Notes under the pieces: model-generated
What the model saw: the letters and a program-made list of their open reading frames with translations, nothing else
Databases searched by the model: none
What the model was told of the DNA's origin: nothing
Translations under genes and position numbers: made by a program
DNA from: Escherichia coli
GTDB taxonomy: Bacteria > Pseudomonadota > Gammaproteobacteria > Enterobacterales > Enterobacteriaceae
Direction: 5' to 3' (one strand)
DNA length: 64,000 bases
NCBI GenBank assembly: GCA_032372955.1
Contig: GCA_032372955.1_4725.1
In this document: positions 6,887 to 60,919 of the stretch, one piece after another
Layout: the number at the start of each line of letters is the position of its first letter
How positions within the stretch are numbered: position 1 is the stretch's first letter

Positions 6887-7561
6887 ATGTCCAACCGCGC
6901 TGCAGCAGAAAAATTCATTCTTGGGTATATCAAAGACCTGGTGGGTGAATCGAGCCCGACTTACGCTATTTACAAAAAACGTTTTGCTGAAATCGATGAT
7001 GAGACGTTTGATGCGTATATGCGTTTATGTCGGGATAAGAAAGAGATTCTACCCATCTGGGTACCCAACATGAACAAAAACGAGGTGACGATAAAACGGG
7101 CGTTGGAAGTCGGTAAGAAATACGGTTTCCCTTTCTTCCAACGCATTTATCTCACCGACCAGAAAACAGGACAATTGGTGCTTCGTGACCGCCCAACCAG
7201 ATTGTACCTGATTCCAAACCGCCGACAAGCCGAAACGTTGAGTGCTAAAATATCGATTCCGAAAAACAACAACACCAAGGACCAGCTCACCAATCAGCCG
7301 ACGGGTGATAGTAAAGGTTCCACTTGGAGCCAGCCGGAAATGCAGGCGACGTTAGGACGGTCGATGCCGAACGTGAACCGAGAGTTGATGCAGGCTCGTG
7401 GTGGCGACGATAAGAAGTTCAACGCGATGAACCGCATGCTGTTAGAAACAGGTACCGTAAGCTTGGAGCAGCTCCCTGAAGACAGCAAGGCAAAATCGGT
7501 TTCGGCGGTTGGTGTTATCCTCACCGCGATGCATCTCCAGAATAACCTTGATGAGGGCTAA
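6887..7561 (+). CDS. hypothetical protein
   Basis: ATG with AGGAG SD; 224 aa. Confidence 0.7.
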   Translation: MSNRAAAEKFILGYIKDLVGESSPTYAIYKKRFAEIDDETFDAYMRLCRDKKEILPIWVPNMNKNEVTIKRALEVGKKYGFPFFQRIYLTDQKTGQLVLRDRPTRLYLIPNRRQAETLSAKISIPKNNNTKDQLTNQPTGDSKGSTWSQPEMQATLGRSMPNVNRELMQARGGDDKKFNAMNRMLLETGTVSLEQLPEDSKAKSVSAVGVILTAMHLQNNLDEG

Positions 7562-14142: not shown

Positions 14143-17100
14143 CTACTGTGCGTACCTTGTCCGTGTTGGAGAGATTCCTTGCGGACGATTAGGTAGTGAC
14201 ATCGTCTGTTGTTGAGAAGGACCTGCAGAACCCTTACCGATAGAAGAACCCTTAACGGCTTGGATTAATTCCGAAATAAGTTCATTCGTTCTACCGGTGT
14301 TCTTTTCGATGTTCTGCTGTGTGGTCAGCTGCTGTCGGAGAATTTCACCTGCGCTACCGTAGAAGTTCTCACTTGCAACCGATGTTTGTGTCGCAGACTG
14401 CGCAACCTGTGCAGGCGTATTCGGAACCGATATCCCTCGATTTGCACCCGGGTTTGACGGCAAATCGCTAGGTGCTGGAGTTGATGTCGGTTGTCCTGCC
14501 GCGGCTTTTGCTGTTTCGAAACTTCCGGGCGTTGGTGATGCTTCTCCAGGTGCTGGGGCCGTCCCGGCAGCCGCAGACGGTTTAGATTCAGGGATAGTAG
14601 AAGATACCGGGGCTTGCGGATCGTTGCTTACAGCAGGTGTTCCGTTTGCCTCTTGTGCTGCTTCGTTCTTCACCTGTTCGGCGGTGGTCGGTCCTTCAGC
14701 TTGATCGTCTGATGTTGATCCCGATAACTCGTCCATCATTTTCTTCAGGGTGCCATTCTTAGCCGCCTGAATCCAATAAGCAGAACGTTGTTCAACATCA
14801 CGTAATCCGTTAAAACCACCGTTAACCAGATAACGAACTTGGCGCACATCACCCCGTTTTGCGGGATCGCGTAACACGTTACCTCGGTTGAGCCACCATG
14901 CAACACTACCTTCCGCCGCACCTTCCGGCGTTTCCAGGTATGTCGGATCGCTGACAAGATCCTTGTTCAAGGTCTTGGACAGACGAGCGTAGTTAGCTTT
15001 ACCGGTAACCTGAATGAAGCCACGTCCTAAATACTTCGCCCCGTCTCCTTTCTGTGTGTTTCCTAGATCTTTACGATTACCATACACACGTTCGAATACC
15101 GCTTCCGGCCCCATGCTGATCGTCTGTGCGGCATCCTGCACATCACGGAATTTGTAAGGGAAGACCTGTTTAAGACGCTCTGGTGTCTTATAGTTCCCCT
15201 CACGTACGTGAGTGTAGTTCCCCGATTCATGTTCGATGTTCGCAAGGAACATCGCCATTTCCATTGGATCGGTAATGCCGCGTTTTACAGCGGATTTAAC
15301 AAGCGCACGACGTCCAGCTTCAGGACCTGGTCCCATTGCAGGTTTCTGTAAGCCCATGTTAGGCAATCCAGTAAGATCGCCGGTTGACCCTAATCCCGCA
15401 TTGGAAGTAGCCGAAGCAGTAAAGCTGCTTGCACCTACCCTATTCCCATTGGGGTTGTAATTCGCTTCGGCGTTACTCATCCCACCGGTAATGCGTGATT
15501 TCTTCTGCCAGACACCGTCTTTCTTCTCGTACCCAGCCTGCTTCATCATCAGCTCTTGGATCTTCGATAATTTATCGGTATCCTCTTGCGATGCTTCCGC
15601 GTTCTTCTCACGAACCTTCTCTTTATCCGCATATTCTTTTAACAGATCGAGCTGGCTCTTTGTTGAACTGCTGGTGGTGTTAGCTTCAGTACCGGAGAAA
15701 CCACAACTATTCCAGGACCATACAGGCTGCAGTGTACCTTTCTCATCACGGTATTGCGTTGCGACAAGTGCTTCACCGATTTCCCAACGTTGGCTGTCTT
15801 TCAGGTTCTGTACCACGTCGGACAGAAGTCCTTGACCGCCCATGTCGCTAACGTGTTGGTAATAGGTTAAAAAGACGGGCAGGAAACGGTTATTCATCCA
15901 AGCAAACCAGATATCCTGATCCCGCTTGCTGTTAACGTCCCGTCCGAACTTCGTCGCGAATTTCTTGTAGAGCGCGACAAGATCGCCACCGTATTTAACA
16001 CCTTTACCTTCAGCGACAACGCCAGGTTCTACAGCGTCTTCGAGTTCCATCAGCACTTTTATCTGACTTAGCAACGGAACCTTAATACCGTACGCACGAA
16101 CACGGAGACTGGTGAGTTCATCGATGTATCCACCGGCAACCCATTTTCTACCACGACGGTCTACGCTTTCAATAACCGCGGTCGCGTCAAGCTTCTGTCG
16201 TCCTTTAGCGCCAGCGCTGTTGTAACGTTTATCGTTAAAACGTAACGACGCTTTCTGACCGCGTAATGCGTTAGGCGCAACGGATTTACGTTGTGTGTCA
16301 GACATCCGTGACCAATCAGCAATAGCCTCATCATGAGAGTATTGCTTAATCTGATTCTGGTACTCTTTCTTGATGGCTTCGAGTTGTTTCAGCATCAAGG
16401 TTTTGACGTCTTGACCAGCAATATAACGCGTCGCACCAGAAGAACCCAACGGGTTAGCTTCGACGTAATACGGACCATCAGGACTATCGGAAGGCCAGAT
16501 AAACGCTTCCGACCATTTCACTTTGTTCTCACCGTTCGGATATTTATCCATTTCCATGTATTTCTTCTCGTCCGGCATATGCTCTTTCCAGAGTTTGTAC
16601 GCACGAGCGAAAACAGGAATAAAACGATGCAGATACCAGCGTTTCCATTCGTTCATTCGGTCGGAATCTTCCAGGGACAATTCCCAGATTTCGAGAATCT
16701 TTTCAGAATCCGCTTTCGGATCGAATCCGATGGTATCCCCGGTCATGACCACATGGTCGGTGAGGTATGTTTCTGTCGCAAGCAGCTTCTTATTGAAGTC
16801 TTTATCGTCCCCTTTTGCACCGTATGCAATAAGACGGAGCTTCTGCATCGGGTCAGGCTTCTCAGCGAAATGCTGATAGATCTTCCATCCAGCATAAGCA
16901 GCCAACGCACCACCTGCAATAGCAAGCCCAACAGGTGAGATAAGGAATGCACCTAATCCCGATAACCCACCAACAGCGTTCAATGCGGCCCCGCCCGCCA
17001 TTAACGCACCACGTCCTAACCATCCTGCTGCACTTAGTCCTCCCTTGACTAGCGCGCCGGTTCCACTAATGAGACCCTTGCCTAACAACCCGGTTAACGA

Positions 17101-20100
17101 TGCACCGCCGCTTAACACCGCCCCAAGACCGCCTAGAATTTTTCCAAGCGGACTCGCCATGAGTCGTTTACCTAATGCGGTATCGCCGAGCATATCGAAA
17201 AGGCTTCCGAGTAATCCCCGTTTCTTCTCCTTTTCTTCTCCTTTATTGGAATCTTTGCCGGTGTCGTCCTTACCGTTTTCCTTGGCTGCACGCTTACGTT
17301 TCAGGTCTTCCAACGATCCTTCTCGAACACCATCGCCATTCCAATCGCGGTAATCCTTATCGCCACCCGGCATACGCTGGTCAAGAAGCTGGTAAATAGC
17401 ATCGAGGCGATCTACCATGCTCGACGTTGTTCCCACCAGTAATGCGTCAGGTGATTGGAAATTTAATCCCATCCGTCGTAGACCGTTAACGGTTTTACCT
17501 GGAAGGGCTTTAAGGATGTCCTTTGTCTTACGTAGCAGCGTTAACGGTAACGTAAAAGCTTTTACGCCGAAGTTGATGAGCTTTTCTTTTAAACGACGAA
17601 TCGCTTTACCGTATTTATCGACAAGTCCTTTCTGCATGTCGGCAAGCGTAAGTACGACGTTACCTTGTGCATCAACAACATCACCATCGATGTCTTCAAG
17701 ATTTTTGATGACTTGTCCATCAGAGCGACGGAAATACCCGCCAGCTGCTAACACCATGGACAACAGACGAGGCGTTGATTCTCCCTTGACGTAAACGTCG
17801 GGTGTTTTGTCAAGCTGTTTGTAGATCTCGACCGCACCGCGTTTTAACATCCGTGGCAGACTTAATACCGTCGTGATTCCATTAAGACCTTCACGTGCCC
17901 ACGCCTTAAGTCCTGAATTCTCAAAGGCACGACCAGCGCGAGTGACCAACCCTTTCTCGATATCCTCGTTGCTGATTACGATGTTTCCATCCGCATCAAC
18001 GAGTGGGCCTTTGATATCCTTCATCCGTTTTACGGCTTTTCCTGTCGCTTCGTCGAAGTATAACCCCTGACGAAGTTTGGCAGCCAGTATGCGTGGTTGG
18101 GATTCCCCTTTAACGTAAATGTCAAACGGAACCTGATCAACCTTGGATAATGCGCCGAACACAAAACGGTTGAAATTGATAATGCGTCGGCCGGAATTTA
18201 CCAAACTACCCAACGTGCGTTCTGCACCCCAGCGTGCGCCTTTAACACCCAAACGTGCGGTATTTTTAATTCCTTTCCAGAGGAGATTACGGCCACCTTT
18301 AAAGAGGTTGCGTGCACCGAGTTTTTGTTTGGCACGATCGATAAATGAAATGGGTGCTGTACCTTCAGGTACATCTTCACCATCCAGTGAAACGTTATTA
18401 GACCAGTCTTTCTCAGAAATGGCTTTCAGCAACGCAAGCATTTCAGTACGTTGTTCGGATGCTTCAGATAACGCTTCGAGATAAAGCTCTTGCCACGCTC
18501 GATTCTGTTCTTCAAGCGATGTGGTGATAACACCCGTGTCGTTCCACCATTTATCATAGCCGATGTTTTCATCAACGGTTACTGTTCCAACAGCCTTGCG
18601 ATCGATGTTCGGCAGACCCGCATTTTGGACGTCATCAACTGATGGTTTTGCGTCACGATAACCTAGCGCCAGCGCTCTTGTTTCCTGAGCGGTTAATCGC
18701 GTATTAACATCACTACGTTCAGCGTACTCCGGTCGGTCGATGTATCGATCGATTTCAGAGAAATACCGATCGTGATTAACCGAGTAGCTTCCGTCGCTAT
18801 TTCTCGTTACGATACCGATACGTTCCAGATATTGGACGTCACCAGTACGTTTCAGTAGGTTAAGGTTACGCTGGATATCCGGTTGTAACGATTTCAGATT
18901 TCCGTAGCGAAGATCCGCTCGGTTACGTTCCGTGTAATATTGCCCGCGGTTTCCAATGACCTGATGACGTTCGCCCTTATCGTTGACATCATCACGAATA
19001 CCGTAACGGTCACGAAAGTACGTGGAAAGTTCCTTAATAGCGTCGCGGTCAATACTACGATCGAAGTTGCTTTCATCCGTAAAACGAGCCGGGTCGAATG
19101 CGATGTTTGCGTCGCTATCTCGTGCCAGCTGCTTAGCCAGTGCCTTCCTGGCTTTTTCCGATAATTGTTTATCGGGATCGACGACCGAGATAACCTCATT
19201 GAAACGGCTGGCGTAATAACCAAATGAACGTTTGTTAAACAGGGTGTCGTTGACGCTTTGTTCGCGCGTGCGCTGAGCCACGAATTGCCCGCTGATGCCG
19301 TCATAGACCTCGTAGTCGGGATCGCTGTTTCCCGTGCGGATGCCTTCACTGCTTTTCAGAATGCGAGCAAGAAAACCAGGAATAACTTCATTGATGCTGC
19401 GGTAAGTTAAACCGTCGAAAGACGTCTGCTCCGCCAATGTTTCAGCGGTGTCGTTCATCACACGGAAGTTACGTCCGCTGTCCATGTTGAACGCCCAACG
19501 CCCTGCGCCGCGTAACAATTGCTTGTAAAACGGATCGTTAAGATTGAATTCGTTTTTACGAATATCTTCCTGGAGCAGTTTACCGAGATTACGCGTCGTG
19601 TAAGCGGCAGCCTCACCACCTTGATCCACGGCTTTTAACGCGCTAGCGAATTTAGCGTTGGGGTGACGTTTTGCTAAATCGCGTAACGCCATCCTGCCTT
19701 TATTAGCCATCCATGGTGCGACAGTTGAGCCAATGAACTGACCCAACATCTTTCCTTGCATTTCCTTAATATCGCCTTCTGACCCCATCCCATCCATCAT
19801 GGACATCGAGTCACGTGCTTCGTTTAAACCGTATAACGCATCGTTTGCGCCAGACACGACGCCTTTTAAAGCACCTAATGCGTTGGTGGCAAGGTTCTTC
19901 TTAACATCGGCAAAGAAACGGTTCTCGAAAGAACTCATCGCATCTAACGCGTTACCAAAGAAACGTTGGTACGCGCTACGGCGGAATTCTTCCGACATTT
20001 TTGCTTTAGCTGCATCAGGTAAAGCCGTATTCTTCTGGATGTTTTGTAATAAACCGATATAGACTTCGGCTAACTTTTTATGCTGATCAAAACTTGCACG

Positions 20101-20808
20101 TTGAATCGCTAAGGAACGATATTTCAGTTCCAGGCTTTTACGCATGTAGCGCGCGGCGAATTCATTGTTGAAACCAACCATCTTGGCGACGCCTTCTTGC
20201 ATCGCACTCATTTGTTTGTTGGTTACAGCGTACCGTTTGTCAGCGATATCGTCACGGATACTCTCTTTCGCTTGCTGCTCAGCAAACTGATCCGCGTTTT
20301 GGTTTGCTGATTCGCCTAATGCCTCGGCAACCTTGCGGGCGATCTCATCGTCCCCCGCGCTCGCCATGCGTTGACGAAGGGTTTCTTCAGCATGTTTACG
20401 TTCGTCTTCTTCCTTGGCTTCTCGCTCCCACTGCTCGAGAATTTTCTTCGAGAAATCGGGCATGCTCGCGCGGTATTTCTTGGTCAGTTGTGCAGCTAAC
20501 CGTTTTGAGCTTTGGACCTTAGGAAGAACGTCACGAACGGCTTCATTGTATAGTTCCTTCGTGGATCCGACGGCGGAATCGATAAGATCCATACCGTCGC
20601 TGTAGCCCTTAGGCAATGCGTTTCTGGCGATCTCCTTCATTCTTTCGTAGGAAGTAAGATCTTCAGCAGCACCTTTAACCGCGCCTATCGCAAAGCGTGT
20701 TATCGGTTTACGATCGTCTTTGGGTTCGTTAAAATCGAGATCCAGGGAGAAGTCATCATCCCAGTTATCCCAATTATCATCACCCTCAACACGGGTTTTA
20801 TCTACCAT
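14143..20808 (-). CDS. giant protein (2221 aa) with C-terminal GH19 chitinase/lysozyme-like domain and Gly/Ala-rich hydrophobic segment
   Basis: First ATG 20808 has GGAGG SD (ORF-track TTG at 20925 is upstream); GH19-like signature (EHESGNY ... LGNTQKGDGAKYLGRGFIQVTG ... YW) encoded about 14790..15270; glycine-zipper hydrophobic run mid-protein; architecture recalls the phiKZ gp181 virion lysin. Confidence 0.8.
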   Translation of the reverse strand: MVDKTRVEGDDNWDNWDDDFSLDLDFNEPKDDRKPITRFAIGAVKGAAEDLTSYERMKEIARNALPKGYSDGMDLIDSAVGSTKELYNEAVRDVLPKVQSSKRLAAQLTKKYRASMPDFSKKILEQWEREAKEEDERKHAEETLRQRMASAGDDEIARKVAEALGESANQNADQFAEQQAKESIRDDIADKRYAVTNKQMSAMQEGVAKMVGFNNEFAARYMRKSLELKYRSLAIQRASFDQHKKLAEVYIGLLQNIQKNTALPDAAKAKMSEEFRRSAYQRFFGNALDAMSSFENRFFADVKKNLATNALGALKGVVSGANDALYGLNEARDSMSMMDGMGSEGDIKEMQGKMLGQFIGSTVAPWMANKGRMALRDLAKRHPNAKFASALKAVDQGGEAAAYTTRNLGKLLQEDIRKNEFNLNDPFYKQLLRGAGRWAFNMDSGRNFRVMNDTAETLAEQTSFDGLTYRSINEVIPGFLARILKSSEGIRTGNSDPDYEVYDGISGQFVAQRTREQSVNDTLFNKRSFGYYASRFNEVISVVDPDKQLSEKARKALAKQLARDSDANIAFDPARFTDESNFDRSIDRDAIKELSTYFRDRYGIRDDVNDKGERHQVIGNRGQYYTERNRADLRYGNLKSLQPDIQRNLNLLKRTGDVQYLERIGIVTRNSDGSYSVNHDRYFSEIDRYIDRPEYAERSDVNTRLTAQETRALALGYRDAKPSVDDVQNAGLPNIDRKAVGTVTVDENIGYDKWWNDTGVITTSLEEQNRAWQELYLEALSEASEQRTEMLALLKAISEKDWSNNVSLDGEDVPEGTAPISFIDRAKQKLGARNLFKGGRNLLWKGIKNTARLGVKGARWGAERTLGSLVNSGRRIINFNRFVFGALSKVDQVPFDIYVKGESQPRILAAKLRQGLYFDEATGKAVKRMKDIKGPLVDADGNIVISNEDIEKGLVTRAGRAFENSGLKAWAREGLNGITTVLSLPRMLKRGAVEIYKQLDKTPDVYVKGESTPRLLSMVLAAGGYFRRSDGQVIKNLEDIDGDVVDAQGNVVLTLADMQKGLVDKYGKAIRRLKEKLINFGVKAFTLPLTLLRKTKDILKALPGKTVNGLRRMGLNFQSPDALLVGTTSSMVDRLDAIYQLLDQRMPGGDKDYRDWNGDGVREGSLEDLKRKRAAKENGKDDTGKDSNKGEEKEKKRGLLGSLFDMLGDTALGKRLMASPLGKILGGLGAVLSGGASLTGLLGKGLISGTGALVKGGLSAAGWLGRGALMAGGAALNAVGGLSGLGAFLISPVGLAIAGGALAAYAGWKIYQHFAEKPDPMQKLRLIAYGAKGDDKDFNKKLLATETYLTDHVVMTGDTIGFDPKADSEKILEIWELSLEDSDRMNEWKRWYLHRFIPVFARAYKLWKEHMPDEKKYMEMDKYPNGENKVKWSEAFIWPSDSPDGPYYVEANPLGSSGATRYIAGQDVKTLMLKQLEAIKKEYQNQIKQYSHDEAIADWSRMSDTQRKSVAPNALRGQKASLRFNDKRYNSAGAKGRQKLDATAVIESVDRRGRKWVAGGYIDELTSLRVRAYGIKVPLLSQIKVLMELEDAVEPGVVAEGKGVKYGGDLVALYKKFATKFGRDVNSKRDQDIWFAWMNNRFLPVFLTYYQHVSDMGGQGLLSDVVQNLKDSQRWEIGEALVATQYRDEKGTLQPVWSWNSCGFSGTEANTTSSSTKSQLDLLKEYADKEKVREKNAEASQEDTDKLSKIQELMMKQAGYEKKDGVWQKKSRITGGMSNAEANYNPNGNRVGASSFTASATSNAGLGSTGDLTGLPNMGLQKPAMGPGPEAGRRALVKSAVKRGITDPMEMAMFLANIEHESGNYTHVREGNYKTPERLKQVFPYKFRDVQDAAQTISMGPEAVFERVYGNRKDLGNTQKGDGAKYLGRGFIQVTGKANYARLSKTLNKDLVSDPTYLETPEGAAEGSVAWWLNRGNVLRDPAKRGDVRQVRYLVNGGFNGLRDVEQRSAYWIQAAKNGTLKKMMDELSGSTSDDQAEGPTTAEQVKNEAAQEANGTPAVSNDPQAPVSSTIPESKPSAAAGTAPAPGEASPTPGSFETAKAAAGQPTSTPAPSDLPSNPGANRGISVPNTPAQVAQSATQTSVASENFYGSAGEILRQQLTTQQNIEKNTGRTNELISELIQAVKGSSIGKGSAGPSQQQTMSLPNRPQGISPTRTRYAQ

Positions 20809-21053
20809 GTATACCTCCAGTTCGATACGTTCCCATGTTACGTTGGAACGTGATGCACGAAGTTTACCTTCGGCATTGATAATGTTGAAGCGTAACTTCA
20901 CACATCGCCCGCTTGATTTTATCAAGCAGGTACGTAACCTAATAACTTCCTCGCCTCAAGCAAGGAAGCGATGGGTGACGCCATCACCCATTACGTCTCT
21001 CGTGTGTTCAGATGATACCGCCGCAGCCGGTGGTGGTAAAGAGGAGTGTCTCC

Positions 21054-22520
21054 ATGGCTAAAGTCAGAGAGCCGTTTAATATTAGCATTTTGCGCCTCGA
21101 TAAACAGCAGTTACGTTTTCTCCCCAAGATCACGAGCATGAGCATCCGTGACCCAAGCACCGGTAATTTCCACGATGATGGTTTCTATTCTTACACCATC
21201 TTTGGTAGTGCGGGTAGTGAAGATCGAGACCGTCGATTTGCGGTGATCGAATGCAAGGTTGAAATCCTACACCCCGTCATTTACGACCGCCTCATTCGAC
21301 TAAAACACCTCTATGGCGATATCATGTCGGGGAAGGCGTACGCTCGGTGGGATCCTGAACAACGCGACTTCGTTGCGTCTGATGCGTTAACAGGACAAAC
21401 AGGATACGGGTTCTTTGCACAACACGTCGCGGATATCAAGTTCGTTTCAACGGGTTCAGCTCAACGAGAGCTACGAATTAAAGTTGTCGAAGAGAACATG
21501 TTCAAAGCGATGACCCGTCACTTACTGGTATTGCCTGCGGGCTTACGCGAAATAGAAGTAAAAGAAGGCGGGTATGAAAGCGAGCAAGAAATCACGGAGT
21601 TGTATCGTCGTTTCCTTGCAATTTCTAACACCGTCCCTGATGGATTAAAAGATTATTCTGATCCCGTTTACGACGGTCAACGTTGGAGCTTACAGAGAAC
21701 ATTTAACGATATCTACGCTTTGTTGTTGGATATGTTCCAAGGTAAGAAAGGGATCTTCCAAGGTAAGTTCGGTTCACGTCGCGTTTGGAACTCAACCCGT
21801 AACGTTATTTCGGCAATTAACCCCACAACAGAGGTACTAGGGTCGCCCAACCAGCCTTCCTGTACCGCAGTTCAGTTAGGGTTATACCAGATGAGCAAAG
21901 CCGCCCTACCCGTGACGCAACATGCGTTACGTACGGGGATTTTGCAGGAAATATTTGTCCGTGATGTTACAGAAGTTGAACTTATCGATACCGAAACGAT
22001 GGAACGTGAACGTGTCACGCTTGATCCAGACACCATCGATGACTTTACAACATGGGACGGAATAGAACGTTTATTGAACACCTTAAGCGATCCTGGTGTA
22101 CGTAACGAACCCATCATGGTTAATGGGCGTTATCTTTGTCTCGTCTATGTGAACAATGATTCGTTTCGGTTATTCCGTGGTATGAGTGAATTACCCCCGG
22201 AGATGCTGAATAAGCCTGGTGCGGATGTTCACCCCATCACGTACACCGAGCTTATCTATATTGCCGGATATAAGTACTGGAATAACCTGGCTGCGATGGT
22301 AACACGTTATCCGGTATCGGGTATGCAATCCGTTATCCCGTTAACCTGTTACGCGCGTACAACCGTTGCAGCAAAACCGAAAACCGAACTGGATAGTAAC
22401 TGGGAACCAATAACGGATGAACGATTTATCGCATGGGAATACCCCGACTGGTTACCTAATGCCTCGTTCGTAGAAACTACTATTGTTCCTGCGCCATACC
22501 TCGCCGGTTTAGGCGGTGAT
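21054..22520 (+). CDS. multisubunit RNA polymerase beta-prime N-terminal fragment, exon 1
   Basis: ELYRRFLAISN and GKKGIFQGKFGSRRVWNSTRNVISAINP match conserved beta-prime regions; ATG 21054 with GAGGAG SD; proposed 5' splice site after T22520; ORF continues 31 codons into the intron to a stop at 22616. Confidence 0.7.
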
Positions 22521-23002
22521 AAGTCCTTGAAAAATAAAGACTTTTTTCAATGGAAGTTGTCCGGTATTCCCGAAAGGGAGTGCTTGAAAAACCTACGAAT
22601 TGCTGGGAACCCCTAAAGCTCAACGACCCATGAGGTGCCGAAAGGCAGAAACAACAGTTGAGATGCACTACCTCCCACGGAGGCTTAGGCTGAAAGAAAA
22701 GCCGCGTAAGCGGTGCTAAGGTGCGCGATAATGGGCAATCAGCAGCCTGGTTGTTGCGTAGTAATACGGCATTCTTGAAAACAAGAATGTGAAACAACGC
22801 AGGTTCAACGACTAAGGGATTTACCACCCTGTAGAGGACAAGCGTCTTCGAAGTGTAGGTTACCGTAACAGGTGTTGCTGAAGTATTCTTCAGCGAAGCT
22901 GACGGTTTGATATAGTCTCCTCTTGCATGAAAGTGCAAGCAGCCTGTGATGTACGTATCCATGCAGGCGGTCTCAGCGTAGCGACCTGAGGCGAAGACAA
23001 GG
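22521..23002 (+). ncRNA. group I intron 1 (in beta-prime gene), 482 nt, no internal ORF
   Basis: P AATTGCTGGGAA 22598-22609; Q CAATCAGCAGCC 22736-22747; R GTTCAACGACTAAGGG 22803-22818; S GATATAGTC 22909-22917 (GACTA/TAGTC forms P7); GNRA hairpins; exon ends in U, intron ends in G; boundaries inferred, about +/-10 nt. Confidence 0.7.
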
Positions 23003-23182
23003 TTCGACGGTGATACGGTCTCGGTTAACGTTCTTTATTCCATGGAAGCCATTGACGAAATTACCAACTCGCACAAGAAGCGAGCTTTCTGGGTAAGTGG
23101 TAAAAATAAATTCAACATCGATATTGGTTACGATACGGTTGCGTTTCTATTACGCAACTTAACGGGACCTCGTGGAGCCTAA
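23003..23182 (+). CDS. RNA polymerase beta-prime fragment, exon 2 (carries FDGD of catalytic motif)
   Basis: Open frame FDGDTVSVNVLYSMEAIDEI... ending TAA 23180-23182; joined to exon 1 gives ...LGGD|FDGDTVSV, i.e. a DFDGD motif. Confidence 0.55.
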   Translation, partial: FDGDTVSVNVLYSMEAIDEITNSHKKRAFWVSGKNKFNIDIGYDTVAFLLRNLTGPRGA

Positions 23183-23185
23183 CCC

Positions 23186-26100
23186 ATGGCAAAACTTAAA
23201 TACCTTGATTACTACCGACAGTTTGGTGTCAGACGCTACCAAGAGCTACTATCACCAAGATTACGTTTAGTGCAGCTACTGCAGCTGCCGCGTTATGCTG
23301 TCTATCATTACACCGCAACGGATCCTTCATTGATAGGTCCTCCAGAAAACGAATACATGCTGAGCAAAGAAAGTGCTCAACTATGGATTTCGTTTGCTGA
23401 TGATCTCGCAACCAAACAGGGTGCACCCCGACGTGATCAACGATTCCAACTCCCACGAGCGAAATTGGATTATCGTGCATCACATCGTCGTTTTCGTTTG
23501 GTTACCGATCTAAGCGCGGTGGAGAAAAACATCAACGCTCAGATCGTTGCTAACTACGCGCATCTTAACCACATGTACATTTATCGTCCAACGCTCACCC
23601 GTTGGTATGATGAATGGTTCAACGTACGTAAAACAATTTGGTCGAAAGCCAACGAAATCGCACAGCAAAGCGATCGTCAACACTTTTTGTTGTTCCGTAT
23701 ACCGTCAAAATTGCCGAAGATTTCGTTGATGCGTACCACGCAACAGGCACCGACCCGTAACAACCTCATGAATTTCGCCACGCCGGAGGAGCTGTCGTTC
23801 TTTGACTTCTTCCGCTGGTTGGGCGTCGATCGTGAGAACAGCACGATGGCTTCGTTAGACAGGGCCATGCTGGATAAGCTTAACGTCGTATTTACAGACG
23901 GTGTGTACTTCTTTACGCTGAATCTCGGCCTGCTGGAGGAATGGCGTACCGGACTTGTGAAGGAAGGGGAAGAACTCGATAAAACGACGCTTGAAACCTT
24001 CCAACGACGTTGGATGATGGCGGTAACACGTCTGTGGTCGCAGAGTGCGAATGAAGAAGAACAGAAACAAGAAGAGGAACAGGTTCTTCGTCAAGAGCGA
24101 GATATTCTTGCAGCCAGCCCGGATGCGGAGTACGATGATCGTGACGTCGTGCTTCCTAACGGTGAGGATCTGGCTACCGTTCTCGATCCCGATGAGTTAG
24201 AAGCGGAGTTGGTCGGTGGGTCGGATGAAGACGATGATGCTGATGCATGGAACGCCATCGTAGAACGCTCGTTCGAAGATGTCCGTGAAGTACCTGGGGT
24301 AGAAGTACAACCGGATTTCCAACCTGATGAAGATCAGGACATTACCGACGATCTCTTCGAAGTCGTTACCGACGATACCGAAGAAGAAAAGGTTGATGTC
24401 TTTGACGCGGCAACGTTACCAAAAACGCATGGCGAATATATTCAGTCGCTATCGGATGCGGTGTTGGTACGCGCGAGTGATCTGGCGGATGCGGGTCAGT
24501 TAAGCGGTGTCCAGTATAAAGCAGCGATGCGTAACGCCGACGCCATTCACGAAATCGAAGCACCCGACGGTTCTGGATTAACACTTGCTGAGTATGTCGA
24601 AGTTAAACCAAAAGCCGCAAAATTAGCTCCCGCAAAGGTTATGCCGGAAGCGGATGTTATCGTCGACAAGAGCTTATGTAAATCGACGCTCGCGGTGTGG
24701 GATAAACATTACGTCGAACACGTAATGCAAAAGGACATCGCAGCTGCCGTTGTTGCGGTACAGCAGGCGGGTTACCCTGTTACGGGATATAAAGTTGAAG
24801 ATGTTGTTGACGTGATGGGGGACTATCAAGTCATCACGATTAAACTGGCCCCTGTAGGCGGTGTCCCGACCACGTTCCCGGTGATGTTGCCGAAGGTTCG
24901 TAAGGACGGCATTTATGTCGTTAACGGTATCAAGTACCGGATGCGTAAACAACGCGTCGATAAACCTATTAGAAAGGTATCGTCATCTGAAGTCGCATTG
25001 AGTACCGCCTACGGTAAGGTGTTTGTTAAACGTTCAGAGCGCGTCGTTAATAACGCCGGTCGTTGGTTAACACGCCAACTTACGGCGATGTATTACGATA
25101 AGTCCTCGCCCTTAACAACGTTAAAACGCGGTAACGTCTTTGATCCGGCTGTCAAAGTTCCGTATTACTTCGCTGTGCTTGCACGCAACTATACCCAAAT
25201 CCAATTTGCTGATTGGGATATACGTCTCGATATAAAAACATTGCCGGAGTTCATCGGGGAAGATCGGTTCAACGAACAGTTAGCCGAAGGACTCCTGACG
25301 TTCGCGCGTAACACGTTGGGTGAATTCTTAGCAATCGATAAACGCAATCAGCTCTATATCTGTCAGTCGGGACAAACACCAACACCTGTAGGGACGTTCC
25401 CTGATTTCTTCGGCATTAATGCGGCTAAGATGCCGATCGAAGCCGCCGATCTTGAATTCATGGGTGTACGTATTCCGGTCGGTGTTGTTCTAAGTTATCT
25501 GGGTGGGCTTACCCCGTTATTAGAACATCTTAAAGCGAACTATCGTACGGTACCTCGCGGCTCTCGTATGGGGTTAGCACCCGATGAATTCGCAGTGAGC
25601 TTTGACGACGAAAGTCTGATCTTCAGTAAAGACGATCGCATGACGACGTTGTTGCTGGGTGGGTTTAACGAATACCGTAACTACATTGGTTACGCTCGCG
25701 GTGCTTTCGACAATCGAGATATCTATTTTAACGTTGTTGATGGTGCTGGACTTAAGGTTCGCCATTTGCGCGAACTTGAACTCATGGAGCGTCTTTTCAT
25801 CGATCCGGTAAGCCGTACGTTGTTGCAGAACATGGGAGAACCTACCGATTTCGCCATGTTGTTACTGCGTGCTGTTGAACTGCTTCTGGATGATTGGGCA
25901 CCTAACACGAACGATGTGAACTACCAACGTTTTAAAACGTACGATAAGTTCGCTGAATTGGTGTATAAGGACCTGGTTGGCGCTATTCGTCAGAATGAGA
26001 ACAGCAGTCAAGGGAACCGCCAGAAAATCTCAATCAGTCCGGTAAGCGTCTGGAACCAAATTCTCGACGATAGCGCTTCCATCGTGATCGATGAAACCAA

Positions 26101-26392
26101 CCCGATGCTGGATATCAAGCAGGGTGAAGAAGCAACGATGACCGGTATCGGGGGTCGTTCAAAGACATCGCTTCGACGCGCACGTGATCGCGAATACGAC
26201 AAGTCGGACATTGGTGTTGTATCCGAAGGTACGAAGGATAGTGGGGACGTAGGTATTTCTGCTTACCTCGCACCTAACGCAAACATTGTGTCTGTATACG
26301 GTGAAACGAAACCTTACGACGAGAAAACGGATGGTAGCTCGTCAATAATGAGTACATCAGCACTTGCAGTACCTGCTGCTGATAGAGATGAT
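23186..26392 (+). CDS. multisubunit RNA polymerase beta fragment, exon 1
   Basis: ATG with GGAG SD; C-terminal part has beta-like TGIGGRSKTSLRRARDREYD ... VVSEGTKDSGDVGISAYLAPNANI; about 500 aa N-terminal extension; in-frame TAA at 26393 is proposed to be intronic. Confidence 0.75.
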
Positions 26393-26874
26393 TAACGCTT
26401 TTAATAGCAGGGTCCGTCTATGTGGCGACATGTAGATGAGATTCACTGAATTGCGAAGACATCCGTCGCTGTTATCGACCAAAACGGATTCTGAAAAGAA
26501 AGACGGTACGGTATAAAAACAGATAATAGCTTAAGGACAATCCGCAGCCAAGTACCTAAGGATCGCTGTGAAGCGTTCTAAGGTAAAGGTTCAACGACTA
26601 AGGGATTCATCCCCCTGTACCCCTCGAGTGAGGCATTCTCCTTGGATAAGAGAATGGTGCTGGATGCGCTGGGAAGAAGTGAACTCTCGTTGAGGTGCTG
26701 AAGAAGCACCGTTTGAAACGAGATGTGATATAGTCTGCTCTTGCGTGAGAGCGCAAGCGGGAGGTGGTGCGCCTATCATCGCCTCCGGGATAAGACTAAC
26801 GACCTTATCTGAACAATCTAATCTCAGTCTTATTTCGGTAACGGTATGTTAATACTGAATAAGAACTAAATTCG
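26393..26874 (+). ncRNA. group I intron 2 (in beta gene), 482 nt, no internal ORF
   Basis: P GAATTGCGAAGA 26448-26459; Q CAATCCGCAGCC 26538-26549; R GTTCAACGACTAAGGG 26589-26604; S GATATAGTC 26727-26735; 3' hairpin TAAGACTAACGACCTTATCTGAAC; 5' splice site uncertain within 26365-26393. Confidence 0.65.
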
Positions 26875-28014
26875 CCCAAGAGATTGGTATTTATAGGTAT
26901 CCAACACAACCGCATGATTGCTGCTGAAGGTTACGATGTACAGCCGTGGCGTACGGGTGGTGAGACTGTTATCGCGCATCGTGTTGGTAAGCTCTTCGCA
27001 GCAGCTGCCCAAGGCGATGGTGTTGTGAAGAAGGTCACTAAAACTGCGCTGACGATACAGTACGACGACCCAGAGTTAGGGGAAGAGGTTTTCCAGCTCG
27101 GTACGATAATCGGGAAAGGACCAGGTAAGTATTATCCTCACGATCTCATTACCGATTATAAAGTCGGGGATCGCGTTAAGGATCAGGATGTGGTGGTTTT
27201 CCACCGCCTTTATTTTAAACGCGATTGGTGGAACCCAGGTCAGGTTGTTTGGCGCGCAGGTGTTCTGTCTCTTGTCGGTATTCTGGATATTCCAGAGACC
27301 CACGAGGACAGCTCGTATATCTTCGACAATCTTGCTGATCGTCTCGTAACACCATCGATTAAGAGTCGTACGCTTATCGTTGACGCTCATCTCAACATTC
27401 GTGGTCTCGTGAAAATCGGTGATCATGTTGAACCGCGAACGATTCTTGCAACACTGGAAGAACCGATTGCAACCGATCTGAGTGATGAGAGTCAGGAAGC
27501 CGTTGAAGCATTACGTCGTATGAGTCAGTATAACCCACGTGCTGATGTTCATGGTGAAGTTGTACAGATCGATGTACTGTACCGCGCTCAGATTGAAGAC
27601 ATGAGTGAAACCATGGCAGCGCTCGTCGGTGAGGCAGATAAAGCACGAGCTAAACGCGTCAAGGAACTGAAACTCAACGAAGCAACAACGGGGCGTATCA
27701 ATAACAGTAACGTGAGAATAGACGGTAATCCGTTAGGCGAGAACCAGATCGCCATCCGTATTTTCATGCGTTACGACCTTGGTGCGGGGATGGGTGATAA
27801 AGGTACCTTCGCAGCTCAAGCGAAATCCGTTGTCTCTTCCGTGGGTCATGGTGTGAACAAAACCGAAGACGGGCACACCCTTGATGCTATCTTCAGTGGC
27901 ACCAGTATCGCTAACCGTATCATCGGTTCACCGGAAGTGGTTGGGACTGTGAATCTTGGTCTCCTCTACGCAACGGAACGAGCTGTTGATATTTACTTTA
28001 ACGACGCTAAATAA
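26875..28014 (+). CDS. RNA polymerase beta fragment, exon 2
   Basis: Begins PKRLVFIGIQHNRM (fork-loop-like) and contains GDKGTFAAQAKSVV ... EDGHTLDAIFSGTSIANRIIGSPE (beta GDK...GNKG / SRMN-like region); only a TTG with no usable SD in this frame, so independent translation is unlikely. Confidence 0.7.
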   Translation, partial: PKRLVFIGIQHNRMIAAEGYDVQPWRTGGETVIAHRVGKLFAAAAQGDGVVKKVTKTALTIQYDDPELGEEVFQLGTIIGKGPGKYYPHDLITDYKVGDRVKDQDVVVFHRLYFKRDWWNPGQVVWRAGVLSLVGILDIPETHEDSSYIFDNLADRLVTPSIKSRTLIVDAHLNIRGLVKIGDHVEPRTILATLEEPIATDLSDESQEAVEALRRMSQYNPRADVHGEVVQIDVLYRAQIEDMSETMAALVGEADKARAKRVKELKLNEATTGRINNSNVRIDGNPLGENQIAIRIFMRYDLGAGMGDKGTFAAQAKSVVSSVGHGVNKTEDGHTLDAIFSGTSIANRIIGSPEVVGTVNLGLLYATERAVDIYFNDAK

Positions 28015-28050
28015 GAGCAGGGGGCGTCATGCCCCTGCTCATTTATTTCG
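28015..28050 (+). terminator. rho-independent terminator after RNAP beta
   Basis: gagcaggggg-cgtcat-gcccctgctc hairpin (about 10 bp stem with one bulge) followed by atttatttcg. Confidence 0.6.
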
Positions 28051-29872: not shown

Positions 29873-30583
29873 ATGGCGCTTGTCCGCAACGGTGCTGCGG
29901 TGCTTGCGGACTGGGACATACAAGAAGATAAATCTGTTGTTACTCGTGGCGGGTGTTCGATTCTGACGCCCGTCCGTTACGAGGGATTGGGTTTATCTAT
30001 CATCGGGAGTGAGAACCGGGTTTGTGCGTGCTGCCCGATTATTCTTCCTGATGGACAGTATGGTGTCAGCCACGCATTGACCCAGCTCCATATCGACCCA
30101 TCTGACATCCGTGAGATTACCATGGATGGTCAGCCGTTTTATGAATTTGTGTTTCTTCCCGGCGACACGGTGTTGGTGTCAACCGATGTCGTGATGCGAA
30201 ACTCTTTCCCGTGGCTGATGTATAACGAGATCTATACGCTCGGTAAAGTGCCATGGTGGTATACCGAAAAAGAAAAATATCAATTGCTGTACACGTCAGC
30301 GAAATTGGCGGGCGTTAAATTGAATGCGGATAGCAGCATCTATTCTGTTCTGGCGTCTATCACCACACGTGACCCCAACGATCGTCGTCGGGCGTGGCGT
30401 CTGCTTTCGGATGAAGAACGCAGCACCTTAAAAGCCATCGACATCGGATTACGAAACATTATCGATAGTGGTACAAACACCATCACCAACTTAATGGGTG
30501 GTTACGTGAATAACGCAATCGATAGTAGTTTGGTTTATCCTGCGGATACGATCAGCGAAACAGAAGCGATTCTGAGGGGGTGA
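29873..30583 (+). CDS. hypothetical protein
   Basis: ATG directly after upstream stop; GAGGTG SD; 236 aa. Confidence 0.7.
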   Translation: MALVRNGAAVLADWDIQEDKSVVTRGGCSILTPVRYEGLGLSIIGSENRVCACCPIILPDGQYGVSHALTQLHIDPSDIREITMDGQPFYEFVFLPGDTVLVSTDVVMRNSFPWLMYNEIYTLGKVPWWYTEKEKYQLLYTSAKLAGVKLNADSSIYSVLASITTRDPNDRRRAWRLLSDEERSTLKAIDIGLRNIIDSGTNTITNLMGGYVNNAIDSSLVYPADTISETEAILRG

Positions 30584-53395: not shown

Positions 53396-54376
53396 ATGCA
53401 AGAGAACCAAGTACATATTTGGGCTGTCGGTGGTTGTGGTGGCGAAATCGGCTCAGCATTTGAAGGCGAAGTCGCGAAAGGATTACACAGCATGACGTAT
53501 GTTGATACCAGCCGCGCTAACCTACGCGATAGCACACTGGGCGACGATCATATTTACATCTTTAAAGATGCAGCCGGTCGTGAGTTAGACGGTTCTGGTA
53601 AGAAGCGTGACGAGAACGCTGAACTGATCTGTTCGCAAATCCCAGGTATTCTCAATAAGCATACACCAGGTAAATTTAATATCGTGGTCTTTAGTTTGAG
53701 CGGTGGTTCAGGTTCTGTTGCCGGTCCTGCGTTGGTTGCTAACCTGCTGGAACGCGGTGAACGTGTGGTGTGTTGCATCGTTGCCTCGTTCGATGATGAG
53801 CGTCAGACGATCAACGCCGATCGCACCTTCAAAGGACTGATGGCGGCTGCAGAAGGGTTGAAGCGTCCAGTGATTGTTAGCTATCACATGAATGGCGAAA
53901 ATGGGAAATCAGAGCAGGATGTCAACCTGGATGTGCAGGTTGTTATCAGCCAGCTTTGCGTTCTGTTTTCTGGCGAGAACCGTCGTCTTGACAGCGCTGA
54001 CCTGGAAAACTTCTTAAACCATCCACGTGTTACCGGTTTGGAACCAACGATCACCGAACTGAATACGTTCATGGGATACGATTGGACGAAAGAGAACGAT
54101 AGCCCGATTGCTTTCTGTACGCTTTATCCGAAAGACGCGACAAAAGTCATGGGCGTTAGCGCTATTTACAGCTGCGATGGTTTTGTGCCTGAAAGCAGCC
54201 CAATTCGTGAAGCGACGTCGTTTGTTTTAAGTACCGATCGTTTAGGGGGTATTATCAAACAGATCGCGGACGAAGCGAAACGTTACATCGAACATCGTAA
54301 CGCGCGTCAACAGGCACCGAAAGTTGGTGACGAAACTGTAGCAGAAGCGAAGAATAGCGGTTTCTTGCTTTTCTAA
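53396..54376 (+). CDS. phuZ: PhuZ-like phage tubulin/FtsZ-family protein
   Basis: N-terminal VGGCGGEIG (T1-loop-like) and SLSGGSGSVAG (tubulin GGGTGSG signature-like); 326 aa, close to known PhuZ length; AGGAG SD. Confidence 0.7.
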   Translation: MQENQVHIWAVGGCGGEIGSAFEGEVAKGLHSMTYVDTSRANLRDSTLGDDHIYIFKDAAGRELDGSGKKRDENAELICSQIPGILNKHTPGKFNIVVFSLSGGSGSVAGPALVANLLERGERVVCCIVASFDDERQTINADRTFKGLMAAAEGLKRPVIVSYHMNGENGKSEQDVNLDVQVVISQLCVLFSGENRRLDSADLENFLNHPRVTGLEPTITELNTFMGYDWTKENDSPIAFCTLYPKDATKVMGVSAIYSCDGFVPESSPIREATSFVLSTDRLGGIIKQIADEAKRYIEHRNARQQAPKVGDETVAEAKNSGFLLF

Positions 54377-58765: not shown

Positions 58766-60919
58766 ATGGAAAATCCGTTCTTTTACGATGAAAACGGATA
58801 TGGTCGTACGTTGGATATGACCAAAGAAGCGGTACAGGATTATACCCTGTTCTTAATGCGCACGCGTGGGATATCTCAGCAGGAAGCGTTGCAGTTTGTT
58901 CTTGAAACGGTTCGTCCTGGTGGAAAATACGGGATGGTTGATCCCGACTGCCTGGTATTAACACAGCGTACCGAAGGAAATCGAGAAAAAGAAGTCATCA
59001 AGTTCAGCCAATACTTCAACGATATTAAAGAAAATAATTTAATTATCACGCCGGTATGGGCTAACTGTTATCCGCGTGAAACACGTTCCAGTGTGTTAAG
59101 CGACTTCGCGGTTGAAAACGGTAAGTTGCGTAAGAAACAAAAGAAACAAATGTCGATAGCACAAGCACACGGACGTAAAGACGAAGCGGAGCTACACGAT
59201 AAACGACAAACCAACACCAAGTTAGACAACAACAGTTTGTCAGGAACCCAGGCGTCCAAGTTCAACCCTTTTTATAATCCGATTGCGCATCCAAGTTTAA
59301 CGACAACATGTCGCTGTGCTTCAGGTTCAGCCAATGCGAACAACGAACGCTTCCTTGCGGGCAATTTCCATTATTACGATTGTGATATCGCAATTGAAAA
59401 CATCGTGAGTATTGTCCGTAACAGCGATCGTAAGGCCATTGAGCAGGTAATGGTAAAATACAAACTGCATTACCCTACGCCGGAAGAGGTTTGGGCTAAC
59501 GTATCGAAATGCTTGCATCGATATACTTTCGACCCAGAGAAAGAGCTGACCATCCGGGAGCTAATTACCGGTTTAACGCCATTAGAACGCGCCTGCTACA
59601 TGTACAGCAATAACCTGTACTCGTTACGTGAGCTTAATCCTGAATTCGTTCGAGATTTTCTTGATTCGTTATGTGAGCTGGCATCCGAACCTGTTGAAAC
59701 GATGGAAGAGGCTAAAGCCATTATTGCTTCCATGGATAACAACACGGTCGCTTGGATCACAGCACAATGTACGGAGTTCTTGAATGGGGAGGCGATTTAC
59801 GTAGCGCTAGAAAAAGGAAATGAACTTGGTTATCGTCTTACCGCAGCAACGACAAAATTAATGCTGCAGCGTATCCAAAGCTACGCTGATTTGATTATGG
59901 CGTTCTGGCGTACCGAGAACCAACCGGCTGGAGTTTATGCTTTCCCGTCGGCAATCCGTGAAGTGGGTGTGTTGTCTGATACCGACTCGACGGTGTTTAC
60001 CTGCCAGGAGTGGGTTCAGTGGCGATTTGGAAATATGGAGATCAATCCAATTTCGACGCGCTTAGCAAACACGCTTATCTATCTGGTTACGCAGATTACG
60101 GTTCATCTGATGGCGATGTGTTCTGGTAATATCGGTGTAGCGAAAGAGCATATGTACGTGATGGAAATGAAGAACGAATATATGTTCTTGATTCTGTCGT
60201 TAACCTCGATGGGTAAAAACTATTACGGTTACATGACCATGCGTGAAGGGGTTCCTATCAATCCACCGAAGCTGGAATTGAAAGGTCCGGTTATGCGTGA
60301 TGCGTCAGCACCAAAAATGATCGTCAAACGTGTTGAACGCATGATGTGCGGTATCATGGATAAGCTGTTACGTAATGAGAAGATCAGCATTCGATTGGTT
60401 CTTGACGATATTATCTCGTTAGAAAACGAAATCGTTGAGTCCATGAAACGCGGTGATCCCGATTTCTTAACACGTGTTAAAGTGAAGCCACATGTTGCGG
60501 TAACGAAACAGTCTTACGATATGTGGGAAGAGGTGTTTGCTCAATCGTACGGCCATTGCCAGGAACCACCCTATATTGGGGTTCGTGTGCCGTTGGCGAC
60601 GAAGAACAAAACGCTTCTTAACGATTGGATTGATTCCTGGGAGGATAAAGGGTTACAACAACGTTTCCGTGATTGGATTGTACGTAACGATAAGAAAACG
60701 ATAAGCAACTTAACGATACCATTACCGGTGATCGAAGCCTCCGGGCTTCCCGATATCTTTATTCAAGGGATGGATATTCGTCGATTGATTTCTACGCTCG
60801 TGCGTTCGTATTACGCGTTAATGGAAAGTTACGGTATTTTCATCTCGAATAAAAACAATACATTGTTAGCCCAAGACATTGCAGCAAGTTATTTACCGAA
60901 GCGAGAAACCACAGAGTAA
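58766..60919 (+). CDS. hypothetical protein, 717 aa
   Basis: ATG with GGAGG SD; contains acidic SDTDS and GKNYYGY motifs of unknown significance. Confidence 0.7.
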   Translation: MENPFFYDENGYGRTLDMTKEAVQDYTLFLMRTRGISQQEALQFVLETVRPGGKYGMVDPDCLVLTQRTEGNREKEVIKFSQYFNDIKENNLIITPVWANCYPRETRSSVLSDFAVENGKLRKKQKKQMSIAQAHGRKDEAELHDKRQTNTKLDNNSLSGTQASKFNPFYNPIAHPSLTTTCRCASGSANANNERFLAGNFHYYDCDIAIENIVSIVRNSDRKAIEQVMVKYKLHYPTPEEVWANVSKCLHRYTFDPEKELTIRELITGLTPLERACYMYSNNLYSLRELNPEFVRDFLDSLCELASEPVETMEEAKAIIASMDNNTVAWITAQCTEFLNGEAIYVALEKGNELGYRLTAATTKLMLQRIQSYADLIMAFWRTENQPAGVYAFPSAIREVGVLSDTDSTVFTCQEWVQWRFGNMEINPISTRLANTLIYLVTQITVHLMAMCSGNIGVAKEHMYVMEMKNEYMFLILSLTSMGKNYYGYMTMREGVPINPPKLELKGPVMRDASAPKMIVKRVERMMCGIMDKLLRNEKISIRLVLDDIISLENEIVESMKRGDPDFLTRVKVKPHVAVTKQSYDMWEEVFAQSYGHCQEPPYIGVRVPLATKNKTLLNDWIDSWEDKGLQQRFRDWIVRNDKKTISNLTIPLPVIEASGLPDIFIQGMDIRRLISTLVRSYYALMESYGIFISNKNNTLLAQDIAASYLPKRETTE

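Follow-up and report, generated by a model that had tools for sequence, protein, structure and literature searches.

The virion-packaged multisubunit RNA polymerase (vRNAP) is already known chimallivirus biology. In Escherichia phage vB_EcoM_Goslar (NC_048170; hereafter Goslar), five vRNAP subunits, gp205, gp207, gp78, gp196 and gp210, were found in virions by liquid chromatography coupled to tandem mass spectrometry (LC-MS/MS), and gp196 tagged with green fluorescent protein (GFP) was both packaged and injected. In phiKZ, Gp180 possesses the DFDGD motif, each virion contains approximately 10 copies of it, and Gp178, Gp80 and Gp149 come down with it in co-precipitation. In PhiPA3, a group I intron lies in the vRNAP beta gene (gp211/gp209), next to the second Asp at the gp211 end, equivalent to D1072 of phiKZ gp178 and D675 of E. 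coli RpoB; the HNH endonuclease that it encodes, gp210, is a nickase and was demonstrated to serve as a weapon against phiKZ (Birkholz et al. 2024, PMC11620839). Here, we analyse a related locus in a 64 000-nucleotide stretch of DNA filed under Escherichia coli (GenBank assembly GCA_032372955.1, contig GCA_032372955.1_4725.1), the whole of which is referred to as the window. Very probably, the two genes of the locus at 21054–28014, both split by group I introns, code for core vRNAP subunits of a Goslar-like chimallivirus. What is new is the allele itself: endonuclease-free group I introns sit at active-site codons of both genes, and one of the two, at the PhiPA3 site, is absent from the Goslar reference.

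The region displays three large open reading frames (ORFs) on the + strand (21012/21054–22616, 23186–26395 and 26884–28014), which we resolve into the following features (a caret marks a splice junction throughout):

21054–22520, + strand: beta-prime exon 1, vRNAP N-terminal subunit (orthologue of Goslar gp205 and phiKZ gp180), 489 codons, ending ...AGLGGD.

22521–23002, + strand: group I intron 1 (RF00028), 482 nt, without ORF, inside the catalytic DFDGD motif.

23003–23182, + strand: beta-prime exon 2, FDGDTVSV...GPRGA, 59 codons and a stop codon.

23186–26392, + strand: beta exon 1 (orthologue of Goslar gp207 and phiKZ gp178), 1069 codons, assigned from PHROG 3148, AlphaFold2 (AF2) models and Foldseek.

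26393–26874, + strand: group I intron 2 (RF00028), 482 nt, without ORF, after the Asp-Asp of a conserved beta motif (E. coli HDD^ANR).

26875–28014, + strand: beta exon 2, PKRLVFIG...YFNDAK, 379 codons and a stop codon, ending shortly past the GDK...K block.

28015–28040, + strand: GC-rich hairpin with a T-rich tail directly 3′ of the beta stop codon, the likely terminator of the beta-prime/beta two-gene unit (Goslar annotates the same element as a terminator).

The relationship with Goslar is close. The window matches its genome with 94–97% DNA identity in three colinear blocks separated by two breaks (pairwise BLAST) and, in a megablast, Goslar was the only match in the phage collection (95% identity, 92% of the query covered). 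The breaks fall at 22521–22558 (38 nt versus 1572 nt in Goslar) and at 26379–26884 (506 nt versus 24 nt in Goslar). Moreover, Logan contig SRR18300793_26 (run SRR18300793) contains 9 kb with 100% identity to the window, and Goslar orthologues of the PhuZ tubulin, DNA polymerase, terminase and tail sheath also lie within the window. Together, the Goslar-level DNA identity, the identical Logan contig and these orthologues argue that the source of the window is a Goslar-like nucleus-forming jumbo phage (chimallivirus). At the protein level, beta-prime and beta are 99–100% identical to Goslar gp205 and gp207, and the locus shows synteny with PhiPA3, where it corresponds to gp213 (giant protein), gp212 and gp211/210/209, annotated as equating to phiKZ gp180 and gp178.

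Both interruptions are identified, from their ribozyme features, as group I introns devoid of an endonuclease gene. Indeed, Rfam returned exactly two matches across the whole window, both to RF00028 (group I intron) and both full-length (model positions 1–253): intron 1 at 22535–22939 with 64.1 bits and intron 2 at 26391–26757 with 52.8 bits, for a gathering score of 50. The P7, P3′ and P9 core blocks of the two introns are approximately 90% identical to each other, with little else in common, and the P7 strands GACUA/UAGUC are kept in both. In the P1 pairing, GAU^AA faces UUGUC in intron 1 and GAU^U faces GGUC in intron 2, so that a U.G pair forms at each 5′ splice site; both introns follow a U, end with a G as their last base and leave the exons in frame on ligation. 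In the Goslar copy of intron 1, GAU^C pairs with GGUC, which we read as a compensatory change. The introns presumably self-splice in vivo. No endonuclease ORF was found in either of them: sense-strand ORFs are limited to a short exon 1 read-through in intron 1, and there are none in intron 2. An antisense ORF of 160 aa starting at an ATG (22480–22962, − strand) runs across all of intron 1 and figures among the genes called in the Logan contig; Pfam gave no match to it, the Goslar annotation has no counterpart, and it is most likely spurious. The initial annotation of this DNA, made from the letters alone, had left the two interruptions unnamed. An intein was rejected as the insertions are not in-frame protein, and a frameshift or assembly error was rejected as an independent assembly, L007, carries intron 2.

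At the first junction, exon 1 ends ...GGC GGT GAT (22520), the intron ends ...AAGG (23002) and exon 2 starts TTC GAC GGT GAT. The DFDGD motif is absent from every single ORF and is formed only once 22521–23002 is removed (...AGLGGD^FDGDTVSV...). At the second, exon 1 ends ...AGA GAT GAT (26392), the intron ends ...TTCG (26874) and exon 2 starts CCC AAG AGA, giving DRDD^PKRLVF, and the consensus of 80 beta homologues at this junction is DDPKR. The stretch spanning the spliced junction reads ...LAGLGGDFDGDTVSVNVLYSMEAIDEITNSHK in beta-prime and ...DRDDPK in beta. Spliced beta-prime is 100% identical to P0119, the product of an uninterrupted gene on several public contigs, and the intron-less alleles L006–L010 are colinear with the window after exact removal of 22521–23002; L006 and L008 are also colinear with it after removal of 26393–26874. 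Joined at 26392^26875, beta is 1448 aa long, the same length as the uninterrupted Goslar gp207, and its exons fall contiguously on the PHROG 3148 profile (positions 2–1050 for exon 1, 1051–1420 for exon 2). Natural intron-less alleles thus support the exact exon junctions.

The spliced beta-prime piece is 548 aa long from the ATG at 21054, which is preceded by AGGAG 8 nt upstream, and ends 55 residues past DFDGD. It is covered end to end by PHROG 2986 (‘RNA polymerase beta subunit’, E 3e-179), and a single-sequence search of PDB chains matched the beta-prime N-terminal subunit of the AR9 non-virion RNA polymerase (nvRNAP; E 4e-4). A profile built from 70 homologues (A4) retrieved 78 distinct PDB sequences, all of them beta-prime or gamma, with E 1e-15 for the AR9 nvRNAP beta-prime N-terminal subunit and approximately 3e-7 for bacterial chains. 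In this profile, AR9 DYDGD is aligned to the DFDGD of beta-prime, and the D, D, G and D positions of the Mg-binding loop, (N)ADFDGD in the double-psi beta-barrel active site of beta-prime, are invariant across the 70 homologues. Pfam detected no RNA polymerase (RNAP) family, neither RNA_pol_Rpb1 nor RNA_pol_Rpb2, in the raw ORFs, spliced beta-prime or intron-less beta, even at E ≤ 5. In addition, a Salmonella enterica serovar Enteritidis assembly contains a 99%-identical uninterrupted beta-prime N-terminal protein (P0121), deposited under the label ‘hypothetical protein’; it is encoded on a 238-kb contig, which probably represents the complete genome of a Goslar-like phage.

A single-sequence PDB search with beta gave nothing relevant. 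The number of homologues depends on the query, with only two proteins retrieved by the full-length sequence and 118 by residues 499–1448; the full-length search was probably swamped in the word index by an acidic low-complexity linker. A profile of 80 homologues (A2) matched 49 PDB sequences, all annotated as RNAP chains, the best being Thermus thermophilus beta (E 3e-16), and aligned the blocks NP...GxGGRS, xDD^xxR and GDK...K to their bacterial counterparts. The conserved blocks expected of a beta subunit, GPGG in the fork/Rif region, HDD-ANR and GDK...K, are thus accounted for. The AF2 model of residues 499–1448, built on the 99%-identical intron-less allele P0001, has a mean predicted local distance difference test (pLDDT) of 90.5 and a predicted template modelling (pTM) score of 0.86. 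With this model, the top 50 Foldseek matches in PDB all come from bacterial RNAP entries, consistent with a beta chain, and the best match is a bacterial beta (E 8e-28, probability 1.00, TM approx. 0.5–0.56). The last conserved block (GMGDKGTFAAQAKSV) aligns to residues 822–871 of the 1119 residues of T. thermophilus beta and lies near the end of the phage chain, which stops approximately 50 residues past this GDK block; the C-terminal GEME/clamp module is therefore absent from the same chain. This is the known split architecture.

At the other end, residues 1–499 of beta fall outside the region matching bacterial beta and have no structural counterpart, the beta body beginning at approximately aa 500. 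The model of this extension (pLDDT 84) comprises a folded alpha/beta domain up to approximately residue 310, a disordered acidic stretch from approximately 310 to 420 and a short helical segment. The linker that joins the N-terminal domain to the beta body is strongly acidic, of low complexity and predicted to be disordered (window 24050–24450, beta aa approx. 290–420), and the extension is conserved across the homologue family according to the consensus. This alpha/beta domain of approximately 300 residues could be what fits the polymerase for packaging and ejection or, alternatively, for sigma-free promoter recognition.

These results bear directly on the initial annotation, which had described split and highly divergent beta-prime and beta fragments of a phiKZ-type RNAP. 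The PDB profile matches, the bacterial beta fold and the end-to-end coverage by PHROG 2986 and 3148 support this description, and the measures it gave hold up well: it had placed the end of beta-prime about 60 residues after DFDGD, had noted that beta stops without the GEME module even with both exons joined, and had found about 500 N-terminal residues of beta without obvious bacterial counterpart. Of the checks it had proposed, profile and structure searches led only to RNAP beta-prime (78 sequences) and beta (49 sequences, with the Foldseek match above), whereas a search for the Pfam Rpb1 and Rpb2 families would have been a false negative.

The same annotation had expected the remaining RNAP parts to be encoded elsewhere. 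This is correct for the beta-prime C-terminal subunit (Goslar gp78), which lies outside the window, but two complementary RNAP fragments were located inside it. These fragments, together with the giant gene that is divergent from the locus, are:

6887–7561, + strand: beta C-terminal piece of the vRNAP (orthologue of Goslar gp196, 224 aa), assigned from PHROG 3233 (‘RNA polymerase beta subunit’, E 1e-65) and the Goslar annotation.

14143–20901, − strand: giant virion protein (Goslar gp204; positional equivalent of PhiPA3 gp213), assigned from PHROG 3201 (E 2e-291) and synteny.

29873–30583, + strand: fifth vRNAP subunit (orthologue of Goslar gp210, 236 aa), assigned from PHROG 2926 (E 4e-56).

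In the gp196 orthologue, a PEMQATL stretch stands in place of the bacterial GEMEVWAL and, judging by the motif, may be the GEME counterpart. The giant ORF is open over 14143–20925 on the − strand; counted from its first TTG it gives 2260 aa, and 2252 aa from the start used in Goslar (20901). It carries the lysozyme domain that had been announced for it, a C-terminal lysozyme/GH19-like domain at aa 1875–2097 (endolysin PHROG 181 and a weak Pfam GH19 match).

In the scheme that we propose, the vRNAP would be packaged into the virions of this phage, injected with the DNA and used to transcribe early genes. The first gene of the locus would provide the N-terminal half of beta-prime with the Mg-binding DFDGD loop, and the second a 1448-aa beta without the C-terminal GEME module and with a phage-specific N-terminal extension of approximately 500 residues. 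The remaining pieces would come from separate genes, at 6887–7561 for the beta C-terminal part, at 29873–30583 for the fifth subunit and outside the window for the C-terminal half of beta-prime. Only with both introns removed from the mRNA would beta-prime regain GGD^FDGD and beta DRDD^PKR.

Other explanations have to be weighed against this scheme. The cluster could encode the non-virion RNAP, i.e. the nucleus-resident middle/late enzyme, as virion and non-virion phage polymerases are both split beta/beta-prime enzymes and the best PDB sequence match of beta-prime is the non-virion AR9 polymerase. However, AR9 ranks first only because the PDB copy searched yielded no matching virion RNAP structure, and Goslar gp205 and gp207, to which our two proteins are nearly identical, are listed among the virion RNAP subunits detected in particles. 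The orthology and synteny with phiKZ gp180/gp178 and PhiPA3 gp212/gp211–209 point in the same direction, while a different Goslar beta-prime-like gene, gp247, is located beyond the window end, where it adjoins chimallin. The probability of a non-virion enzyme is thereby next to negligible. The initial annotation had already opted for the virion-packaged early polymerase, a choice that the near-identity to Goslar virion subunits and the phiKZ/PhiPA3 orthology bear out; its argument, divergent transcription beside a virion-type gene, was weak even though the conclusion was correct.

The nature of the interruptions can be questioned in the same way. They could be dead insertions, degenerate introns or junk that inactivate the genes, the assembly then being that of a defective phage: neither intron contains an endonuclease gene, intron 2 is just 2.8 bits over the Rfam gathering score, and the splicing of both is deduced from their sequence. 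Yet both covariance-model matches run over the full model with conserved P7 strands, both introns have the 5′ splice-site U.G and a G preceding the 3′ splice site, and both exon pairs are in frame and restore family-invariant motifs. Intron 2 also occurs in the independent assembly L007, with stem-preserving changes. In addition, the interrupted genes encode essential virion components, and approximately 25% of the listed beta and 10% of the listed beta-prime homologue clusters are interrupted at the same sites, so that we consider dead insertions very unlikely. Finally, the gaps could be true gene fissions yielding four separate polypeptides that assemble post-translationally, which would suit a polymerase family already split into separate subunits and the 1069-aa and 366-aa products given by ORF callers. 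This appears extremely improbable, as beta-prime exon 2 starts midway through DFDGD and lacks both a start codon and a ribosome-binding site of its own, the frame of beta exon 2 is not open until a TTG (26884) located downstream of the conserved PKR codons, and both gaps are filled by ribozyme cores that Rfam recognises.

A vRNAP split by two functional introns remains our preferred reading, against which several points should be set. For this particular phage, we infer both splicing and virion packaging. Pfam recognises none of these polymerase proteins. By our reading, intron 1 has a short P1 (5 bp) and both introns have a weak P10, and the 3′ splice site of intron 2, set by protein colinearity and the G-before-site rule, could be shifted by one codon. 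As for the beta C-terminal piece at 6887–7561, its assignment rests on the PHROG name, the Goslar literature and the short motif, and a PDB sequence search with its 224 aa gave chance-level matches only, with no RNAP.

Both intron sites are hot spots. Indeed, 29 of the 118 beta homologue clusters (approx. 25%) end at xDD or a few codons on, at DDPKRV, among the best 120 beta-prime homologue clusters no fewer than 11 (approx. 10%) end right after G(A/G)D, and several phage records are broken at the same residue. A second class of interrupted beta genes ends four or five codons on, after DDPKRV or DDxKR(V/L) (P0088, P0090, P0093, P0097, P0100, P0101 and P0111), which suggests a neighbouring, distinct insertion site in beta. 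Among the relatives, four allelic states were observed:

— Both sites are empty in L006 and L008.

— Intron 2 alone is present in L007.

— Intron 1 alone, with its endonuclease, is present in Goslar.

— Both introns, without endonuclease, are present in the window and in L004.

The P0123 cluster, which ends ...GGDRPF, suggests a third variant of intron 1. Exon 1 ends with GAT in intron-plus alleles and with GAC, unable to form the U.G pair, in empty beta-prime alleles.

The vicinity of intron 2 differs from the rest of the gene. Compared with Goslar, spliced beta has 8, 8, 14 and 16 mismatches per 50 nt over the last 200 nt before the intron 2 site and 11 in the first 50 nt after it, for a background of 2–3; the divergence is approximately 30% right around the site (26190–26392 and 26875–26925) versus 3–5% in the background. 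These changes are mostly synonymous, with a Gly-to-Pro replacement at the first codon of exon 2. Such a peak is the pattern expected if exon flanks were co-converted with the incoming intron, and around the site of intron 1, which both phages possess, no mismatch peak with Goslar was detected. A more divergent relative was probably the source of intron 2, through a recombination that brought in flanking exon sequence as well (co-conversion). The search for its donor in the phage collection returned short core blocks only, from Vibrio jumbo-phage RNAP introns and the T4-like td hairpin.

The two introns may be immobile remnants of a homing cycle, of which the Goslar copy of intron 1 still retains the HNH endonuclease. 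Public assemblies hold empty, endonuclease-bearing and endonuclease-less alleles in different combinations, and Goslar-like phages could even be in an active homing cycle at two vRNAP active-site codons, with ORF-less introns acting mainly as immunity alleles. We offer this only tentatively: taken jointly with the adaptor role suggested above for the beta N-terminal domain, it seems possible but rather doubtful. If true, ORF-less introns would shield an essential gene when co-infecting relatives bring in their intron endonucleases, and be the defensive counterpart of the PhiPA3 gp210 ‘weapon’. In the AR9 nvRNAP, the C-terminal beta chain (7s00_C) starts approximately 30 residues before the HDD motif, the gene being split near the intron site of its virion paralogue, and intron or endonuclease insertion may have been the seed of such AR9-type gene fission.

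Elsewhere in the window, the PhuZ tubulin and DNA polymerase orthologues occupy 53396–54376 and 58766–60919, and the last 1.7 kb or so should, judging from colinearity with Goslar gp246, hold the beginning of the gene for chimallin (nuclear shell), which would run off the window end. A tRNA search of the window found none. The scan for sigma-70 promoters gave 9 sites versus 9.0 in shuffled sequence, a lack of excess that is expected as the phage uses its own polymerases.

The main value of these results is correct annotation. At this locus, gene callers give truncated proteins of 520/534, 1069 and 366/376 residues, and Pfam-based pipelines miss the vRNAP altogether. A further outcome is an N-terminal domain on the vRNAP beta subunit that is conserved yet structurally unassigned. 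Moreover, natural intron-less, endonuclease-bearing and endonuclease-free alleles constitute a ready allele series for the study of intron occupancy and co-infection protection, in a genetically tractable E. coli system.

Among known systems, the T4-type td group I intron has a ribozyme core of a similar kind: an intron 2 hairpin (26784–26815, i.e. nt 392–423 of the intron, 32 nt) is 97% identical to the td terminal hairpin. This td-like hairpin is found in more than 200 T4-like phage records, and the PhiPA3 intron ends with a similar one. However, the hairpin directly precedes the 3′ splice site in td, whereas approximately 60 more nt follow it in intron 2; the host gene is different, the window intron has no I-TevI ORF and the remaining sequence is unrelated. 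The non-virion RNAPs of AR9 and phiKZ (PDB 7S00/7S01 and 7OGP) also have a split beta and beta-prime, and the AR9 beta-prime N-terminal subunit, too, stops a few tens of residues past D(F/Y)DGD, but these are paralogous enzymes that are not packaged and their beta is split at another place.

Goslar has the same gene order (giant gp204, gp205, gp207, terminator, gp208–gp210) and a group I intron at the same GGD^FDGD site. Its intron 1 nevertheless contains 1572 nt bearing the 490-aa HNH_3/NUMOD1 protein gp206, between the 5′ splice site and the guide sequence, where the window has 38 unrelated nt, and its gp207 is uninterrupted, whereas the window has intron 2. In the Goslar annotation (L001 8155–11850), the beta-prime exons are unjoined, gp205 reading into the intron to a stop codon (...GGDQGKANKMPVFWQI), exon 2, of 59 codons, lacks an annotation, gp206 goes by ‘hypothetical protein’ and intron 1 appears only as a misc_RNA.

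With PhiPA3 and phiKZ, the window shares the locus architecture of a giant lysozyme-domain protein, a beta-prime N-terminal gene and a beta gene. In PhiPA3, the beta-prime gene gp212 is uninterrupted and its protein is approximately 38% identical to that of the window; the introns in beta share core blocks only (72% over 94 nt), and that of the window is without ORF. The beta introns occupy the same codon position, NDD^MKR in PhiPA3 and DRDD^PKR in the window, and are followed in both phages by an exon 2 of 379 aa.

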